Of a stretch of DNA of 64,000 nt, positions 1-8,223 are shown piece by piece. How positions within the stretch are numbered: position 1 is the first letter of the stretch; every line of letters starts with the position of its first letter. Origin of the DNA: a virus; IMG/VR virus record IMGVR_UViG_3300020159_001814, positions 1-64,000 of that record. The stretch is one strand, 5' to 3'. The translations under genes were made by a program, and so were the position numbers. The notes under the pieces are model-generated. The model worked only from the letters and a program-made list of their open reading frames with translations. It was not told the DNA's origin and did no database searches.

Positions 1-44
1 CTTGAACCACAATCAAGCACTCTGCCAACTGAGCTACATACACC
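1..44 (-). tRNA. tRNA-His(GUG), 3' part outside window
   Basis: Revcomp GGTGTATGTAGCTCAGTTGGCAGAGTG-CTTGA-TTGTGGT-TCAAG; encoded G-1. Confidence 0.9.
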
Positions 45-50
45 ATGTAG

Positions 51-120
51 TACCGATAAAGGGTATCGAACCCAATGACATCCAGGATATGAGCCCGGAC
101 CGAAAACCTTTTCTATCGGC
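51..120 (-). tRNA. atypical tRNA-like gene, anticodon CAU (Met/Ile2), reduced D arm
   Basis: Acceptor GCCGATA/TATCGGT, anticodon arm CCGGG-CTCATAT-CCTGG, T arm GGG-TTCGATA-CCC, D region only GAAA-AGGT-TTTC. Confidence 0.65.
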
Positions 121-126
121 ATGTTG

Positions 127-215
127 AGGAAAGCAGTGGTAACGATCCACAATCGGTTTCTCACCGATCACATTGTTTAGCAAACAAGTCCCGTCGCCTT
201 CAGGGATTACTTTCC
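127..215 (-). tRNA. tRNA-Ser(GCU), long variable arm, probable 8/4 fold
   Basis: Anticodon arm TTGT-TTGCTAA-ACAA; variable arm ATCGGT-GAGAA-ACCGAT; acceptor GGAAAGTA/TGCTTTCC. Confidence 0.8.
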
Positions 216-220
216 ATTTG

Positions 221-293
221 TGTTCACGACGGGTTACGATCCCATTACCTCCGACGTATCAGATCGGCGCTCTACCAATTGAGCTACGTGAAC
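221..293 (-). tRNA. tRNA-Ile(GAU)
   Basis: GTTCACG acceptor; CCGAT-CTGATAC-GTCGG anticodon arm. Confidence 0.92.
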
Positions 294-299
294 TTATTG

Positions 300-372
300 C
301 GGACAAGGAAGGGTACGATCCTACAACCTATCGGTTAACAGCCGATTGCTCTACCAATTGAGCTACTTGTCC
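300..372 (-). tRNA. tRNA-Asn(GUU)
   Basis: GGACAAG acceptor; ATCGG-CTGTTAA-CCGAT anticodon arm. Confidence 0.92.
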
Positions 373-381
373 ATTTTGTTG

Positions 382-464
382 TGGGAGAGGAGGGACTCGA
401 ACCCCCAAGGTCTTACGACGACAGATTTACAGTCTGCTGAGCCAACCAATTGCTCAACTCTCCC
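382..464 (-). tRNA. tRNA-Tyr(GUA)
   Basis: GCAGA-CTGTAAA-TCTGT anticodon arm, long variable arm, GGGGG-TTCGAGT-CCCTC T arm. Confidence 0.93.
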
Positions 465-467
465 AAT

Positions 468-590
468 TCAGGAAAGGGGAAGATGGTTCAGTGGACATCC
501 CCTTTTATGATTGGCGTTACTATGACAGTTACAACTCCGATATAACCACGACTACTGACACGTTAACGTTATATCATTCCCCAATCAACC
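468..590 (-). ncRNA. unassigned structured RNA inside the tRNA array
   Basis: Stems TGATTGG/CCAATCA, GATATAAC/GTTATATC, AAAGGGGA/TCCCCTTT; not a cloverleaf. Confidence 0.5.
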
Positions 591-594
591 TTTG

Positions 595-668
595 TACACT
601 CTACAGGGATCGAACCTGTGACCTGTTGTATGTAAAACAACCGCTACTACCATCTGAGCTAAGAGTGT
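595..668 (-). tRNA. tRNA-Val(UAC)
   Basis: GTTGT-TTTACAT-ACAAC anticodon arm; ACAGG-TTCGATC-CCTGT T arm. Confidence 0.92.
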
Positions 669-739
669 GTGTTTTAGTTTCTTGGAACAAAGATAACCAT
701 TTTTTGGTATCTATCGTTCTTTTTTACTAAATTTTTTTG

Positions 740-814
740 TGATCCCGGTGAGTCTCGAACTCACGACCCCTCCATTAAAAGTGGAGTGCTCTAAACCAAC
801 TGAGCTACGAGATC
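740..814 (-). tRNA. tRNA-Lys(UUU)
   Basis: CTCCA-CTTTTAA-TGGAG anticodon arm. Confidence 0.93.
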
Positions 815-873
815 TTCTGTTTGTCATACTTGTCACTTTCCATAACACTTGTTTTTATTTGTTTATTTATTAG

Positions 874-946
874 TCTAAGTGACAGGGCTCGAACCTGCGG
901 CCTGAGAGTCCCAAACTCCCCGCTCTACCAACTGAGCTACACCTAG
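874..946 (-). tRNA. tRNA-Pro(UGG)
   Basis: GGGAG-TTTGGGA-CTCTC anticodon arm. Confidence 0.92.
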
Positions 947-954
947 TTATTTTT

Positions 955-1043
955 TGGAGGAAGAAGTAGGTGTCGATCCCAATACCCGCAAAGGTACCGC
1001 CCGTTTTCAAGACGGGGTCACAAGCCGTTGTGATTCATCTTCC
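955..1043 (-). tRNA. tRNA-Ser(UGA), tRNA-Sec-like architecture, encoded CCA
   Basis: CCCGT-CTTGAAA-ACGGG anticodon arm; 6-bp D stem TCACAA-CGGC-TTGTGA; long variable arm. Confidence 0.8.
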
Positions 1044-1049
1044 TTATTG

Positions 1050-1122
1050 TTTTCCCCCAAGGGTTCGAACCTCGATTCCGTGGACCAAAACCACGTGTCC
1101 TGCCAAGTTAGACGAGGGGAAA
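1050..1122 (-). tRNA. tRNA-Gln(UUG)
   Basis: CGTGG-TTTTGGT-CCACG anticodon arm. Confidence 0.92.
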
Positions 1123-1131
1123 TTATGAAGC

Positions 1132-1149
1132 CAATATGTCAAAGAACTT
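1132..1149 (-). promoter_or_regulatory. boxA-like antitermination element
   Basis: AAGTTCTTTGACATATTG resembles rrn boxA (TGCTCTTTAACA; recalled as GTTCTTTGA in Bacteroidota). Confidence 0.55.
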
Positions 1150-1163
1150 TTTCTTTTTGTTTG

Positions 1164-1236
1164 AGGTTCCTATCAGGTTCGAACTGATGACTCCGGGTTA
1201 CAAAGCCGGGGTATTACCAAACTATACTAAGGAACC
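1164..1236 (-). tRNA. tRNA-Thr(UGU)
   Basis: GGTTCCT acceptor; TTTGTAA anticodon loop; ATCAG-TTCGAAC-CTGAT T arm. Confidence 0.9.
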
Positions 1237-1250
1237 GAATTTTTGGGTAT

Positions 1251-1280
1251 AAAAAAAACCCGAACTTTTTTGGTTCGGGT
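1251..1280 (-). terminator. intrinsic terminator (attenuator) upstream of tRNA array
   Basis: ACCCGAAC-caaaaaa-GTTCGGGT followed by T run. Confidence 0.8.
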
Positions 1281-1314
1281 CTTATATTTCTTTTATATTT
1301 TTAGTTAATCTTTA

Positions 1315-1425
1315 TCAACTCATAAATGAAAATGCCCTAACCTGCGACTTAAGCGTACGATACACATTGAACGACCACTGAATGCTCGGGTTACAAATGT
1401 TCATATGTCTGTTAGTTGTTTTCAT
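1315..1425 (-). CDS. 36-aa putative leader peptide MKTTNRHMNICNPSIQWSFNVYRTLKSQVRAFSFMS
   Basis: Manual translation; lies between promoter boxes (1432-1438, 1471-1478) and the terminator. Confidence 0.55.
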   Translation of the reverse strand: MKTTNRHMNICNPSIQWSFNVYRTLKSQVRAFSFMS

Positions 1426-1470
1426 CTTGTTATAAATATATCGTTATTGTTAAAAGTTTTAATTATTGTA

Positions 1471-1500
1471 CAAATTTAGTTATTTTTTTCTATTTGACAA
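1471..1500 (-). promoter_or_regulatory. Bacteroidota-type promoter (TTG ... TAAATTTG)
   Basis: -7 box TAnnTTTG at 1471-1478, TTG about 19 nt upstream. Confidence 0.6.
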
Positions 1501-1533
1501 GTGTTTTTGTTATTTATTTTTAAATATTCTTCT

Positions 1534-1693
1534 TGTTCTTCCTCCAATCTACGTAAAAACACAACATAATGTGATTTTAACTAAAAAAATATAATTAATG
1601 TTTGAGTATTATTTAAAAACCACACTATAGTATGGTTTTCTCGTCATTTTTTTCAATATTTTCCTGTTCTTCCTCCAATCTACGTAAAAACAC
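1534..1693. repeat. 29-bp exact direct repeat (1534-1562, 1665-1693)
   Basis: TGTTCTTCCTCCAATCTACGTAAAAACAC twice. Confidence 0.9.
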
Positions 1694-1750
1694 GTAATAG
1701 TCTTCAGAATTTATAAATTCTTCATGTATTGTTTGGTGTATATCTTCCAT
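1625..1750 (-). CDS. 41-aa hypothetical protein (MEDIHQTIHEEF...)
   Basis: Manual translation, below ORF-track cutoff. Confidence 0.45.
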   Translation of the reverse strand: MEDIHQTIHEEFINSEDYYVFLRRLEEEQENIEKNDEKTIL

Positions 1751-1760
1751 AATTTTAAAG

Positions 1761-1838
1761 TGGTGATCCCGGAAGGATTCGAACCTTCAACCCTCGCCTT
1801 AGAAGGGCGATGCTCTAATCCAATTGAGCTACGGGACC
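1761..1838 (-). tRNA. tRNA-Arg(UCU), encoded CCA
   Basis: TCGCC-CTTCTAA-GGCGA anticodon arm. Confidence 0.95.
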
Positions 1839-1844
1839 ATATTA

Positions 1845-2069
1845 TTAAATCTTTTTTACCTCATAAACGTGACCTGAGTCTGAGTTGGTTTGAAATATAT
1901 CTTTCATTAACTCTGCTTCTGAAAGTGTTTCAAACTCCCATATTTCGCCTTGGGTATTTAATAAAACGACAGGTACTCTTTTTTTATTGTCCTGCATTTT
2001 AACTTGTTTAATTATTAAAAACATATTCTTTTTTTTTACAAATATAATAAATAAAAAACCCCCAGTCAA
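1845..2069 (-). CDS. hypothetical protein (true start probably MFLIIKQ)
   Basis: ORF track; TATATTTG promoter box at 2039-2046. Confidence 0.65.
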   Translation of the reverse strand: MTGGFLFIIFVKKKNMFLIIKQVKMQDNKKRVPVVLLNTQGEIWEFETLSEAELMKDIFQTNSDSGHVYEVKKI

Positions 2070-2084
2070 TAAAGAAAGGGGGTT
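2053..2084 (-). terminator. intrinsic terminator
   Basis: AACCCCC...GGGGGTT followed by T run. Confidence 0.6.
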
Positions 2085-2102
2085 AATTTTAGTTAGTTGT
2101 AT

Positions 2103-2420
2103 TTATCTACCAATAATTAAATCATCAAAATCTATATTGCTTGAACCCTTTATTTGTCCTTCAATGTCATCGTACATATATGACTTAACAACCGCAGTTA
2201 TTGACTGTTCTGATTGAGCGATTTTTGTTTCCATCCAATCTTCAAGTTCTTCACCTTCTTCCATCATTTCCCACATCTTATATGCTAACGTTGCAATGGT
2301 AAACAATTGTTGTTTTGCCATATAAGAACCATCATGATCGTTTTCTTTTAGAATCCTGACCATTTTTTCTAATTGTTTTTCTGTTATAATAATTTTACCC
2401 ATAATTTTAAATTTTACCAA
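2103..2420 (-). CDS. hypothetical phage protein with IIITEKQ leader
   Basis: ORF track; acidic; probable start MGKIIITE. Confidence 0.75.
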   Translation of the reverse strand: MVKFKIMGKIIITEKQLEKMVRILKENDHDGSYMAKQQLFTIATLAYKMWEMMEEGEELEDWMETKIAQSEQSITAVVKSYMYDDIEGQIKGSSNIDFDDLIIGR

Positions 2421-2827
2421 GTTCTACAAGCCCAATATCTTGGTTTCCATCTTGGGCCAGGGTTGTCACAGTTATGTCTTGCCCTAAACGATTTTCTTCT
2501 TTCAGGGTTATTTTTTTTGATGGTCATTCGTTTACCTTTTGCAGATTTACCACCAAAACCAAAGTTTACTTTAACAACCTTTCCTTTGTCGTTTTTAACA
2601 TAAACTTTAAATTTTTTAATGTCACCTTGCATTATTTTACCAAGTTGTACTTTTCTTCCTTGGTACTCGGCTTCAGTTAAAAAATTAACTTCTTCTACTG
2701 AACCATATATGTCTTCATATAATTTTTTATTACCGAAGAATTCTTCTTTTAAAACTTTTTTTATGATTTCATTAATATTCATATTAATAAATATCACGTA
2801 CATAAAAAAAGGTGGAATTTCTTCCAC
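2414..2827 (-). CDS. conserved phage hypothetical (EAEYQGRKV...ARHNCD...YWACRTW), probable start 2782
   Basis: Motif recalled from large-phage proteins; TATTTAT at 2787-2793. Confidence 0.75.
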   Translation of the reverse strand: MEEIPPFFMYVIFINMNINEIIKKVLKEEFFGNKKLYEDIYGSVEEVNFLTEAEYQGRKVQLGKIMQGDIKKFKVYVKNDKGKVVKVNFGFGGKSAKGKRMTIKKNNPERRKSFRARHNCDNPGPRWKPRYWACRTW

Positions 2828-2830
2828 CTT
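2804..2830 (-). terminator. intrinsic terminator
   Basis: AAGGTGGAA-gaaa-TTCCACCTT followed by T run. Confidence 0.7.
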
Positions 2831-2894
2831 CTAGGGTCGATCACGGATTGTGATTCGAACTACCACCACTTTGTTTTATAGAGAAACAAAGAAA

Positions 2895-3161
2895 CTACCC
2901 CTCTAACTTGGATTTTGCAACTACAACTTCAGCCATTGATACCTCCTTTGCTAGACCAATTACCATACACTCTTTTAGCATTTCTGCCGGTACGTGAATC
3001 AAAAAATCCTTTCCGTTGAACGTTGATAGGTTTTGGTTCAACTCGATAGAAGCGTGAACCATTTTCAAGAATAACTTGAACTGAACCTCATCCATAAAAG
3101 TTTCGTTTAGGACTTCCCCGTATTTAGGGTGAACTATCGTTACGTGTTTTAGTGTTGCCAT
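2895..3161 (-). CDS. hypothetical protein
   Basis: ORF track. Confidence 0.7.
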   Translation of the reverse strand: MATLKHVTIVHPKYGEVLNETFMDEVQFKLFLKMVHASIELNQNLSTFNGKDFLIHVPAEMLKECMVIGLAKEVSMAEVVVAKSKLEG

Positions 3162-3715: not shown

Positions 3716-4545
3716 AAAAACCTGAGATTACAGTTTTTTGTGAGAACCTTTAGAGTCATTATTGTTTCTACTCTTATCCACTTCCTTTTGAGAAGTATTC
3801 CTCAGTGACGATTATTTAGGTGAATCACTCCTTAAGGTATCAATTACTCTCTCATTACTCAACTCTCTTCGAGGATGCCTCCCCAACTATTCCTTGCGGG
3901 ATTAGAGGTTTTTGGTAAGAATGTAGTTCAACTTGCGGTATCACTACGCAACGAACAGCTCGTTACTATGTAGTCACCTTTCATTGACACCTGACGGACA
4001 CTTTTGCTTTCTAGTTATAAATGTTACCTTATTAACATAAAAGTTTTTGTGTCGTGGATTGTCGAAGTAGTGGTCCGTCTTTCAGCTTCGTTATCTTTTG
4101 AACAACGAAATACCAAACTACTCCGTGAAATGTCCCCATTTCCATATTTCAAGACTACTTCGAGATCTAACCCTTGGTGGGGTTCAATCAAGGTTAGTAA
4201 CAGCACCACCTGTACACCAACATACCTTTCGGTTTTAAGTATCCTATCTTATTGGAACACGCAATAATAAAATTGGATAATCTTATTTTTTGCAATATTC
4301 CTACGGGTTATTCCTATTAGTGTTCCCACTTCAAACTGACAACCCACATTGCCAGTTCGTCTAACCACTTTCCCTACAGCGTTGCCCTCGGTACTAAAGG
4401 TTAAACGGTATCCCGCTTGTGTACTCGATCTCGACAAATCCGAAGATTCACCAAGACGCAAATCAGTTACACTTCTGACTCACTTTATCCCACTTTCGTG
4501 GTTTATTTTAATGGACCATACACGGCCCAATGACTTAATTTAGTT
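3716..4545 (-). ncRNA. large structured ncRNA, GOLLD-like (~830 nt; ends approximate)
   Basis: No credible ORF, GC-richer, tetraloop hairpins (CCAC-GAAA-GTGG, ATC-TTCG-GAT, ACC-GAAA-GGT, CC-GCAA-GG), own promoter and terminator, near tRNAs; family assignment from size and context only. Confidence 0.65.
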
Positions 4546-5419: not shown

Positions 5420-5787
5420 ATTTATATTATATGAATATCAGTATAAAAGAAAACACATTTAAATGTAGGGTTTGTGCTACACCATTATCAATTCAAGATG
5501 GGATGAAAAATAAAACATTTAACATGAGTTTTAATGGTATGTTTTTTATTTTACCAAATAAAGGTAAACAAAAGTTTTGGATGTACGAATGTATCACCCC
5601 ACTTGATATTTTATTCATAGATGGTGACACAATAACAGAAGTACATAATGATTGTTTACCGTGTGATGTTATAGAAGCTTGTGAAAACTACGGTGGGTAT
5701 GGTGATCACGCATTAGAATTACCAGGCGGTACATGTCAATCATTGGGTATAATATCAGGGGACAAGATAAAAATCGGATTACCTTAA
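5413..5787 (+). CDS. DUF192-family protein (probable start 5431)
   Basis: GM, GMFF, FWM, PLDILFID, ALELPGG motifs. Confidence 0.85.
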   Translation: MTYLYYMNISIKENTFKCRVCATPLSIQDGMKNKTFNMSFNGMFFILPNKGKQKFWMYECITPLDILFIDGDTITEVHNDCLPCDVIEACENYGGYGDHALELPGGTCQSLGIISGDKIKIGLP

Positions 5788-7295
5788 CCTTTTTGTATTT
5801 TACTATTTAATATTTCAACAAACTTTTCTTTTATATCTCTTGTTAGTTCTGTTGTTCCTCTTCCTTGTTTTGGGTCGGCAAGTGCTTCAACATCGATACC
5901 TTCTCTTTTCATTCCACTAATAGCCGCTTGAATTTGTTTTTCTGAAAGTTTTCTAAATCTTAAAAGTTTTTGTTTAATATCTTGTATGAATGAATTTGAC
6001 CCTTCGTAAAATGCAATAGGTATTGCATCTGCAGGTAAATCTTTTGTATATGGTTTGTCATAACCACTATAAACAAACCCGATTCCGGTTATATTCGTAA
6101 TACACTTGTGACCTCCTGAATTTGAAACCAAAAAATCATAAGCACTTATTGTATTTGTTTTTGGGTTATACGAAGGCATTTCCCCATATAAAGCATCCAT
6201 ATCTTTTTGTGTAAAACCAACAGAATCTTTTGTTGCCTTTTTTTCTGCAACTCTTTTAATTATTTTAAATGGAAGTATTACTTGTTCAAGTTCAGGTTTA
6301 AAACTTAGAAGAACTTGGTCTTTAATTTTTCCTAAATCAACCCCTTTAAGTGCCCTATCTTCTTTGTATGGGTTACAAGATGCTTGAACTAATCCAACAG
6401 GTGCCCCGATTCCTGTTACTAAAAAGTCCGCATCAGGATTTAACTCAAATGGTGTATATCTATCATATGAACCTTTTTTCATATGACCAAGACCAAACTG
6501 ATGAAGTACACCGCCTTCTTTTTGGATTACCCCTTCTTGTGATCTATCATCAAGATACCTTTCTTGATTTTTTTGCATTGTTTCTACTGAAGCATAACCT
6601 TGATCTTTTGCAATTTTTGTTATTGTATTATATAGATTTTCTAATGATGGTTCACAGTTCATTACAAGGTATTCAAGTAAATCCCTACCATCGACATTAT
6701 TATTTTTATAAGCTAAAAGAAGTTTATTAACAACAAGACCCATCATCATTTTATTTCTTCTAACACTTTTATCTTTGTCATACTTGAAAACAAAATTCAT
6801 TACCATTTTTGGTGTGATATCGTTTGCGGTAAAGTTTGCAGAATCGACTGTCGATACGACATATAAATCTTCGTCTTTGAATAAATCTTTTGGTGAAATT
6901 GTTTGTGAAATTGTTTCAACATTAGATCTTGAATGTTTGAAGCTGGTTTTTGTGTCTTTTTCAACCCCAACTTGTGAATCGTGGTGGTCTGTATGAATTT
7001 CAAACATTGGTTTTCCGTGTGCAAAATCAACAAGAACCGGCATAATCTCACCACTTCCATCCGGTTTTTTAACTGCCCATTCTTTTTCACCATATTGGAT
7101 TATTTCACAATCAACAACTTTAAACCCTTGGTTTTCAAGGTATTTTTTCATTGCAATTGCGGTTGTAACCCCATCCAAATCTTGGTGAAAGTATATTTTT
7201 GCCTTCTTATATCTTTTAAGAAGTTGATTTATATCCCTAATTCCAGATTCTTTAATTAGTTGTTTGTATTGACTTTCAGTTATAATAATTTTCAT
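5784..7295 (-). CDS. DHH-superfamily phosphoesterase-like protein
   Basis: HQDLDG, LVDF, TDHH, VDS and C-terminal SGGH motifs. Confidence 0.7.
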   Translation of the reverse strand: MKIIITESQYKQLIKESGIRDINQLLKRYKKAKIYFHQDLDGVTTAIAMKKYLENQGFKVVDCEIIQYGEKEWAVKKPDGSGEIMPVLVDFAHGKPMFEIHTDHHDSQVGVEKDTKTSFKHSRSNVETISQTISPKDLFKDEDLYVVSTVDSANFTANDITPKMVMNFVFKYDKDKSVRRNKMMMGLVVNKLLLAYKNNNVDGRDLLEYLVMNCEPSLENLYNTITKIAKDQGYASVETMQKNQERYLDDRSQEGVIQKEGGVLHQFGLGHMKKGSYDRYTPFELNPDADFLVTGIGAPVGLVQASCNPYKEDRALKGVDLGKIKDQVLLSFKPELEQVILPFKIIKRVAEKKATKDSVGFTQKDMDALYGEMPSYNPKTNTISAYDFLVSNSGGHKCITNITGIGFVYSGYDKPYTKDLPADAIPIAFYEGSNSFIQDIKQKLLRFRKLSEKQIQAAISGMKREGIDVEALADPKQGRGTTELTRDIKEKFVEILNSKIQKG

Positions 7296-7332: not shown

Positions 7333-8223
7333 TTAATCTTGGATTTCTTCTGATACTGTTTTTAAATTTTTAAAGTATTCAATTCTTGTGTTTGCAACTT
7401 CTGTATAATTTGGTGATAATTCTATCCCTAACCACCTTCTTTCAAGTATTTCGGCAGCTACCAAACTTGTACCTGATCCAGCAAATGGGTCTAAAACTAC
7501 ATCGTTCTTGTAGGATAAAATCTTAATCGCCTTGGTTGGTATGTCCATGGAGAAAGTTGCCTTGGTGAGTGATTTAGTGTCTGCGAAATAATTCCACTGA
7601 CCAAACACAAGTTCCATAAATTCTTTTTTATCTTCTTCATTATAAACAACTTTCTTTTTGAATGTTCCATCTTCTTGTTCTATATCTGTTGGCGTTCCTT
7701 TCCATTGTGGTTCACCTTTAATCTTTTTTATGTGGACTTTTTTATATGCTAATATAACACATTCCTTTGGGTTATAAATATAAGGACTAGATGGTGACAT
7801 CCATGATCCCCATGCGGTAGTCTTACTACGATGAGGTGATTGTTCTTCTAAATCCACAATACCAAAGAACCCAAAACCAATTTCTTTCATTATCTGATAC
7901 ATTTCAGATACAAAAAAGATTCTACCACCTTTTTTTTGTCTATTAATTTCATAAGGGATATTAAGAGCAATTCTTCCATCATCTTTTAATACTCTGTACG
8001 CTTCAGTAAGCCAGTTTTTTGCAAAAACAACATATTCATCAAATGGTACATCATCTTCATGTACGTCATAAGCAATCCCAACCCCATAGGGTGGTGATGT
8101 CACAATTAAATCAACTTCACCTTCAGGAAGTGTTTTCATCACTTCTACACAATCCCCATTTATTATTTTTCCTGTTTCTATCATCTTTTTTCTATTGTTT
8201 GAATGTGGTGTTGCAAATACCAT
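7333..8223 (-). CDS. DNA methyltransferase, N4C/N6A beta class (probable start MIETGK)
   Basis: TSPPY followed by LDPFAGSGT. Confidence 0.92.
   Translation of the reverse strand: MVFATPHSNNRKKMIETGKIINGDCVEVMKTLPEGEVDLIVTSPPYGVGIAYDVHEDDVPFDEYVVFAKNWLTEAYRVLKDDGRIALNIPYEINRQKKGGRIFFVSEMYQIMKEIGFGFFGIVDLEEQSPHRSKTTAWGSWMSPSSPYIYNPKECVILAYKKVHIKKIKGEPQWKGTPTDIEQEDGTFKKKVVYNEEDKKEFMELVFGQWNYFADTKSLTKATFSMDIPTKAIKILSYKNDVVLDPFAGSGTSLVAAEILERRWLGIELSPNYTEVANTRIEYFKNLKTVSEEIQD

Follow-up and report, generated by a model that had tools for sequence, protein, structure and literature searches.

A short reading frame and a terminator ahead of a phage tRNA array: a candidate leader-peptide attenuator for tRNA supply

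When and why phages use the tRNAs that they carry has been debated for decades. The locus described here raises this question in a concrete form, as a promoter, a short open reading frame and an intrinsic terminator stand directly in front of an array of tRNA genes. What could a translated leader and a terminator contribute to the expression of tRNAs? We conclude that this unit is probably a ribosome-mediated leader-peptide attenuator which gates read-through into the first tRNA sub-array and thereby senses tRNA supply. The window, i.e. the whole stretch of DNA that was analyzed, comprises the first 64 kb of a 77.8-kb viral contig from IMG/VR and has a GC content of about 30%. CheckV estimates the completeness of the contig at 26%, so the phage is probably a jumbo phage.

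Organization of the locus and its relatives

The minus strand carries, in the direction of transcription, a GOLLD RNA with its own promoter, small protein genes and a terminator, then a promoter with a 59-codon ORF, tRNA-Arg(UCU), a 41-codon ORF with a partial duplicate, the leader unit and finally the tRNA array, which runs off the end of the contig. The order and the positions of promoter boxes, ORF, terminator and tRNA genes proposed in the initial annotation were all recovered, the terminator spanning 1283 to 1251 in our analysis (Table 1).

Table 1. Elements of the leader unit, of the tRNA array behind it and of the paralogous unit in relatives. Positions refer to the window unless a relative is named.
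Feature	Positions	Strand	Description
tRNA-Arg(UCU)	1761..1838	-	upstream of the unit; reads the leader codons AGA and AGG
Upstream promoter, Bacteroidota type	1469..1501	-	TTG (1500-1498), 19 nt, TAAATTTG (1478-1471), then TA; kept in relatives
Second promoter-like element (putative)	1433..1462	-	TTAAAA-N-TATATTTA; upstream box degenerate
Leader ORF	1315..1425	-	36 codons, MKTTNRHM...FSFMS; ATG at 1425, stop TGA 1317-1315; putative sensing part
Segment 1	1407..1415	-	CTAAC.AGAC, codons 4-7; pairs with segment 2 in minimum-energy folds and by duplex energies
Codons 12-14	1384..1392	-	AACCCGAGC; 9-bp pairing with GTTCGGGTT of the terminator 3' arm (1265-1257) present in this copy
Near-invariant block	1372..1389	-	CCG AGC AUU CAG UGG UCG; in 30 versions, third positions included
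Segment 2 (candidate antiterminator strand)	1332..1339	-	GGTTAGGG, codons 29-32; complementary to the terminator 5' arm
Small hairpin over the stop codon	1304..1319	-	GTTGAT AAAG ATTAAC; consensus fold, one compensatory pair
Intrinsic terminator	1251..1283	-	11-bp stem 1283-1255, T-run to 1251
Segment 3 (core of terminator 5' arm)	1272..1279	-	CCCGAACC
Segment 4 (terminator 3' arm)	1258..1265	-	GTTCGGGT
tRNA-Thr(UGU)	1163..1236	-	first gene past the terminator, 14 nt beyond the T-run; same order in relatives
boxA	1131..1147	-	GTTCTTTGACATATTGG; after tRNA-Thr, kept in relatives
Rest of sub-array 1	1..1122	-	Gln, Ser(UGA)-like, Pro, Lys, Val, Tyr, Asn, Ile, Ser(GCU), CAU tRNA-like gene, His (cut by the contig end)
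Unit 2 in relatives, examples	L003:18638-18841
	L096:7572-7713	-
	L124:3855-4003

Several features of the surroundings should be recorded. The GOLLD RNA (Rfam RF02032, 323 bits, E 4e-93) lies at 3719-4125 (minus strand); its promoter is found at 4688-4655 and is followed by a small hairpin and a boxA-like sequence GTTCTTTGAAA (4628-4618), and a terminator is located near 3680-3640. Directly before the leader promoter stands a second copy of the C-terminal half of the 41-codon ORF (1750-1625), which gives a direct repeat of about 55 nt at 1700-1650 and 1565-1510 (approximate positions, minus strand); close relatives have one copy. Further away a DNA methyltransferase of 296 aa is encoded at 7333-8223 (minus strand; phrog_67, E 2e-44), and the neighboring 503-aa ORF (5784-7295) has no match among the PHROGs.

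Relatives of the locus were recruited with a neighboring protein and with a 25-nt motif that is conserved where the leader ORF ends. In this way 47 viral contigs with the leader unit were obtained, representing 31 distinct versions in which promoter, 5' leader, ORF, terminator and tRNA-Thr stand in register. When the GenBank phage collection was compared with the locus, the only matches were from tRNA to tRNA.

The sequence motif of the upstream promoter, CTTGT-N-TANNTTTGTA, occurs twice in the 64 kb where 0.08 occurrences are expected; the second occurrence precedes the GOLLD RNA. The second promoter-like element aligns base for base with the promoter of a paralogous unit in the relatives (CTTGACA-N16-TATATTTATAA; unit 2, see below), and a TATTTAT sequence is found at 1438-1432 (minus strand). 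The leader ORF starts about 40 nt behind the promoter box.

The terminator is strongly supported by comparison, as 99.7% of the cells of the alignment pair, with three covarying pairs and 38 double-change cells, a score reached by none of 500 shuffles. Behind tRNA-Thr, ARAGORN identifies eight more tRNAs, to which a truncated tRNA-His and two non-canonical tRNA-like genes have to be added; the resulting total of 11-12 agrees with the 11 tRNA genes counted in the initial annotation. The two tRNA-like genes (about 955-1043 and about 51-120, minus strand) were missed by ARAGORN in the window. The first is called Ser(UGA) at the same place in the relatives L007 and L120, and the second has a CAU anticodon loop. 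In the relatives sub-array 1 continues with Arg(ACG), Arg(UCU), Trp, Phe, Cys and Leu(UAG).

A separate tRNA promoter downstream of position 1251 would speak against a control at the terminator. None was found between the leader terminator and tRNA-Thr, and the gap of 14 nt leaves no room for one, so any transcript of tRNA-Thr and of the boxA behind it must have passed the terminator. This boxA is identical over 17 nt to the boxA in the 16S-23S spacer of Bacteroidota rrn operons. Without a mismatch the 17-mer is present in more than 120 genomes of bacteria, of which nearly all are from Bacteroidota; this bears out the host phylum suggested in the initial annotation, and in the two rrn operons examined it sits between the spacer tRNA and the 23S rRNA, that is, at the place of the spacer boxA. 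Genomes sharing it include those of Pedobacter, Mucilaginibacter, Chitinophagaceae, Flavobacteriia and Bacteroidales, and further positions of the 17-mer are L149:2545-2561 and L152:2346-2362. Judged by this identity, the giant lake phage has a host among the Bacteroidota. An rrn boxA placed past a terminator and tRNA-Thr, where no promoter intervenes, is understandable only when polymerases continue through the terminator.

The terminator is spanned by RNA-library contigs, which at 1014-1411 link the leader to tRNA-Thr, boxA and tRNA-Gln and which cover 1186-1284 as well. They agree with read-through as weak evidence, being assembled contigs which give neither starts, ends nor levels and which may stem from DNA carry-over; the stretches of about 1518-1760 and 1824-2100 are uncovered and uninformative either way. 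RNA-library contigs of relatives extend past the start site predicted for the leader promoter on its upstream side, to 1498-1520 (minus strand). If these contigs derive from RNA, some transcription enters the unit from upstream.

By tracing GTTCTTTGACATATTGG in the arrays of the relatives we found a second, paralogous leader unit (unit 2), which in the phage of the window would lie past the end of the contig. It consists of a promoter, an ORF of 22-24 codons (MKNLHI...), a terminator and directly behind it a boxA, followed by tRNA-Leu(UAA), Met, Gly, Glu and Asp. Several relatives have an additional promoter after unit 2, so read-through is not always the sole route into the array, and in one relative, L140, the ORF of unit 2 is present and the terminator absent.

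The leader reading frame and its codons

The reading frame of the leader is open in all 31 versions. It has 34-36 codons, apart from one outlier with 28 codons in which the first ATG is missing; all indels are multiples of three and the position of the stop codon is fixed. The encoded peptide, on the other hand, drifts. The median pN/pS between clades is 0.79, and the variable columns are spread almost evenly over the codon positions (16, 20 and 21 of 37 at positions 1, 2 and 3). An open frame that is kept while the peptide drifts suggests that translation of the leader matters and the sequence of its product does not. Searching the PHROGs (E up to 0.01) with the 36-aa product and its small neighbors gave no match.

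The codon content of the leader is unusual for this phage. It uses 28 distinct codons for 17 amino acids, many of them ending in G or C, as already pointed out in the initial annotation, whose counts were right. Compared with windows of 36 codons from the phage's own long ORFs, the GC3 is 0.44 instead of 0.19 (p 0.002), nine NNG codons are found instead of 2.6 (p 0.003), and the 28 distinct codons exceed the 21.8 of the windows (p 0.007).

We compared the codons with the tRNA genes behind the terminator. Eighteen tRNA species are encoded between units 1 and 2: Thr, Ser(UGA), Gln, Pro, Lys, Val, Tyr, Asn, Ile(GAU), Ser(GCU), Met, His, Arg(ACG), Arg(UCU), Trp, Phe, Cys and Leu(UAG). This list was compiled from the window and from the relatives because the contig ends inside the array. 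The codons of the leader match all 18 species of the sub-array, and 35 of its 36 codons are served, GCA being the one left unserved. Such a joint match was never obtained in 30,000-100,000 draws under each of four null models, namely gene windows, draws from the codon usage of the phage, uniform codons and open shuffles of the leader. When the genome's 129 short ORFs served as a further null, the joint match was reached by one, presumably the leader itself. With strict wobble rules (U34 reading A and G only) the match in the window comprises 17 species and 32 codons. The species are sampled early, 17 of the 18 within the first 24 codons (0 of 100,000 draws). A caveat is that, for the leader, doing without Ala, Asp, Glu and Gly amounts to doing without codons that start with G, and that 29% of spurious AT-rich ORFs have at most one such codon as well.

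The match is retained in the relatives. All 25 distinct versions compared keep 17-18 species, and the codons belonging to the other block number 0-2 in them. Had the frame drifted to the observed extent while staying open, a loss of about three species and of three to four served codons would be expected; in six lineages which differ by 19-28 nt the joint p of the observed retention is 0 to 0.018, and for L084, with five nucleotide differences, the value of 0.19 is not significant. Leader 2 behaves similarly: 12-16 of its 22-24 codons are read by tRNAs of the block behind it, and none of the seven species there is left out (joint p 0.008). The codons of both leaders correspond to the tRNAs encoded behind them. 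The initial annotation had drawn attention to the first nine codons, which match tRNAs encoded nearby. This is true and at the same time trivial, since the phage encodes most tRNAs; the signal lies in the match of the complete ORF to the sub-array. A codon for every downstream tRNA in the leader points to a switch in the style of the trp operon, which would probably deliver more tRNA when decoding is slow.

The strongest competitor of this reading is an ordinary small gene: it would encode a micro-protein and have a promoter of its own and a terminator that leaks, with the tRNAs being expressed by constitutive read-through or from upstream promoters and nothing being sensed. Small ORFs with terminators abound in phage genomes, transcription may enter from upstream as far as the RNA-library contigs reaching 1498-1520 indicate, and around unit 2 both the separate promoter of some relatives and the missing terminator of L140 would fit. 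The peptide, however, belongs to no matched family and with a pN/pS of about 0.8 is not under purifying selection, and the content of rare codons is atypical of the phage's genes. A small gene would moreover leave both the codon-to-tRNA match and the covarying antiterminators described below unexplained. We consider it unlikely, though it is the alternative to be taken most seriously.

One part of the leader behaves differently from the rest. The block at 1389-1372 is nearly invariant, is built from codons seldom used by this phage and folds into a small local hairpin; its conservation exceeds what codon sampling alone fully explains. A degenerate tRNA or T-box in the conserved CAGUGGUCG block was considered by eye, and no model matched. 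An Rfam scan of positions 1-3000 (E up to 1) gave no family above threshold on the leader and no T-box; the sub-threshold hits, among them MicC and Thr_leader, are driven by the terminator. A second small hairpin lies over the stop codon. Its compensatory pair is UA in 19 versions and AU in 10, and the hairpin may be a pause site. The body of the leader without the terminator folds no better than its shuffles (z 0.0, -0.5 and -1.5).

The near-invariant block also speaks for a small regulatory RNA, a terminated transcript of about 215 nt which would act in trans like rnTrpL, with the reading frame being secondary or serving a dual function. Such an RNA would be well served by its own promoter, of a type shared with the neighboring GOLLD RNA, and by the strong terminator, and trans functions of attenuator RNAs are known (PMC6614838). 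On the other side, the fold of the leader is not unusually stable, it has one covarying pair outside the terminator and it belongs to no Rfam family, whereas the in-frame indels, the fixed stop codon and the coverage of the codon set speak for translation. We therefore regard a small RNA as rather improbable, still somewhat more so than the small gene.

Alternative pairings around the terminator

A leader-peptide attenuator would need a strand that competes with the terminator and that a translating ribosome can mask. We looked for it by folding transcripts cut just before the 3' arm of the terminator, and by scoring pairings across the alignment of the relatives. The best candidate is segment 2. 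Its duplex with segment 3 has an energy of -9.0 kcal/mol in the window and forms with a probability of about 1 in the cut transcript, and in 20 of 30 versions the segment 2 site is the best upstream partner of the 5' arm. On the register-true alignment 69% of the cells pair compared with 63.5% in shuffles, and the covariation score is 0.168 compared with 0.099; neither value was reached in 500 shuffles. Three double-change pairs are observed, and slid controls score lower.

The helix is not perfect. About 30% of the cells are unpaired and the central A-G pair never pairs. In the L084 clade, which comprises the closest relatives of the window, the pairing shrinks to 3+2 bp with -5 kcal/mol and segment 2 is not the best partner of the 5' arm. 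Shuffle tests on single sequences gave p values of 0.01-0.18, with about 0.11 for the window. As judged from these comparisons the putative antiterminator of segments 2 and 3 has moderate support in this copy and weak support in its closest relatives. For the pairing of segment 1 with segment 2 two registers were tried; covariation is weak and the register differs between the clades, and we regard segment 1 as a possible anti-antiterminator in the folding models.

The switch is much clearer in unit 2. There the 5' arm of the terminator (CCCTCTCC or CCATCTCC) has its complement in the last four sense codons (GGAGAGGG or GGAGATGG). In this 8-bp pairing 95.5% of the cells pair, with two double-change pairs and a score not reached in 500 shuffles; the pairing is as good as that of the unit 2 terminator itself, and there are two compensations outside the terminator stem. 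The antiterminator forms in 23 of 24 truncated transcripts and with -10 to -17 kcal/mol is close in energy to the terminator (-14 to -16 kcal/mol). By its predicted pairing this is a textbook antiterminator, which a ribosome at the stop codon would cover. The clear switch of unit 2 makes the weaker, analogous pairing of unit 1 more credible.

The initial annotation had proposed a different antiterminator for unit 1, in which codons 12-14 (1392-1384) capture the 3' arm of the terminator. The 9 bp indeed exist in this copy, and in the window they are used by the fold when the 5' arm is forced open. Across 30 versions, however, 82.5% of the cells pair compared with 82.9% in the shuffles, of which 442 of 500 score as high, so that the pairing is not above what chance and descent provide; a double change is seen in one cell only, and the flanking pairs are lost in most relatives. 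The alignment of the relatives, suggested in the initial annotation as a check for a conserved ORF and a covarying switch, thus supports the ORF and the terminator and speaks against the pairing of codons 12-14. This fold is also about 12 kcal/mol worse than the terminator fold, and the constrained folds of the relatives with an opened 5' arm do not use it. Codons 12-14 are a copy of the 5' arm and would therefore have to out-compete the adjacent hairpin partner for the 3' arm. In known attenuators the 5' arm of the terminator is captured while the 3' arm has yet to be transcribed. The pairing of segments 2 and 3 is the better candidate, and we consider a role of codons 12-14 as antiterminator very improbable.

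Least of all do we believe in a chance ORF in the spacer between promoter and terminator: about 8% of the shuffles of the leader sequence stay open, which makes one open frame alone not extraordinary, but this frame was kept across 19-28 nucleotide differences and several in-frame indels, and its coverage of the codon set was retained against drift.

A possible mechanism and its known counterparts

We thus return to the leader-peptide attenuator. Several elements of such attenuators are found here in the expected arrangement, with a short ORF behind a promoter and with an intrinsic terminator before the regulated genes and no promoter after it. Assuming that transcription and translation are coupled in the host, the switch could operate as follows. 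When all 36 codons are decoded fast, the ribosome would arrive at the stop codon and cover segment 2; the terminator would form and transcription would end before tRNA-Thr. When one of the sampled tRNAs is scarce, the ribosome would stall within about the first 24 codons and leave segment 2 free. Segment 2 could then pair with the emerging 5' arm, no terminator would form and the polymerase would proceed into tRNA-Thr. For the remaining tRNA genes, the boxA behind tRNA-Thr would load the factors that the host uses for rrn antitermination. The outcome would be a negative feedback on tRNA supply with many inputs, and unit 2 would act likewise for the block of Leu(UAA), Met, Gly, Glu and Asp.

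A sensor of tRNA supply was already postulated in the initial annotation. The codon match, the conservation of the unit and the covarying antiterminator of unit 2 sustain this idea, and the antiterminator originally put forward has to be given up. More tentatively, each tRNA block may stand behind its own many-input gauge, so that the loss of a single species, including cleavage by an anticodon nuclease, would stall the ribosome and switch on replacement tRNAs. The unit would then be a putative detector of tRNA-targeting defence and an answer to it at once; we consider this possible and at present rather doubtful.

If the attenuator reading is correct, the phage measures the supply of tRNA and corrects it, and leader-peptide attenuation, familiar from amino-acid genes, would gain tRNA genes as a target, while the number of its inputs would rise from one or a few to about 18. 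The boxA would tie the tRNA array to the rrn antitermination machinery of the host, and its sequence points to Bacteroidota as the host phylum.

In our literature search we found no paper on leader-peptide control of tRNA genes, phage tRNA genes included. The closest formal parallel is provided by the attenuators of amino-acid operons (trpL, hisL, leuL, pheL and the multivalent leaders of thr and ilvGMEDA). Like the unit described here they have a promoter-proximal short ORF, a terminator before the genes, and leader codons cognate to what the operon supplies; their upstream strand, which pairs with the 5' arm of the terminator and which a ribosome close to the stop codon masks, would have its counterpart in segment 2. 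In contrast to them, tRNAs would be regulated here instead of enzymes, there is no run of a single codon and each of 18 species is represented by one or a few codons; the unit is encoded by a phage, an rrn boxA follows downstream, and support for the switch is no more than moderate in this copy.

The pheM leader of pheST and the T-box riboswitches likewise tie the expression of the translation apparatus to decoding or to the status of tRNA, by a choice between terminator and antiterminator. T-box RNAs, however, bind uncharged tRNA directly and without an ORF, and a T-box match is absent here; pheM responds to a single amino acid and regulates a gene for a protein. With rrn antitermination (boxA with NusB/NusE) the locus shares the exact spacer boxA of Bacteroidota and the order of tRNA followed by boxA. 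As the phage boxA lies downstream of the leader terminator, it does not account for read-through there and represents an additional module further along the transcript.

Phage tRNAs are known to counter tRNA-cleaving defences (PMC10264068; PMC11464382). These papers concern the function of the tRNAs and not their regulation, and they provide a reason for sensing the depletion of tRNA. The nearest published system that we found is the trn operon of Anabaena, a cryptic array of 26 tRNA genes which is induced under translational stress, reportedly via the repressor TrcR (PMC8421152; PMC10272220). Control there is reported to be exerted by a repressor, in a cellular genome, and here it would be exerted by a leader ORF and a terminator in a phage; common to both would be an accessory tRNA array that is switched on when translation is impaired.
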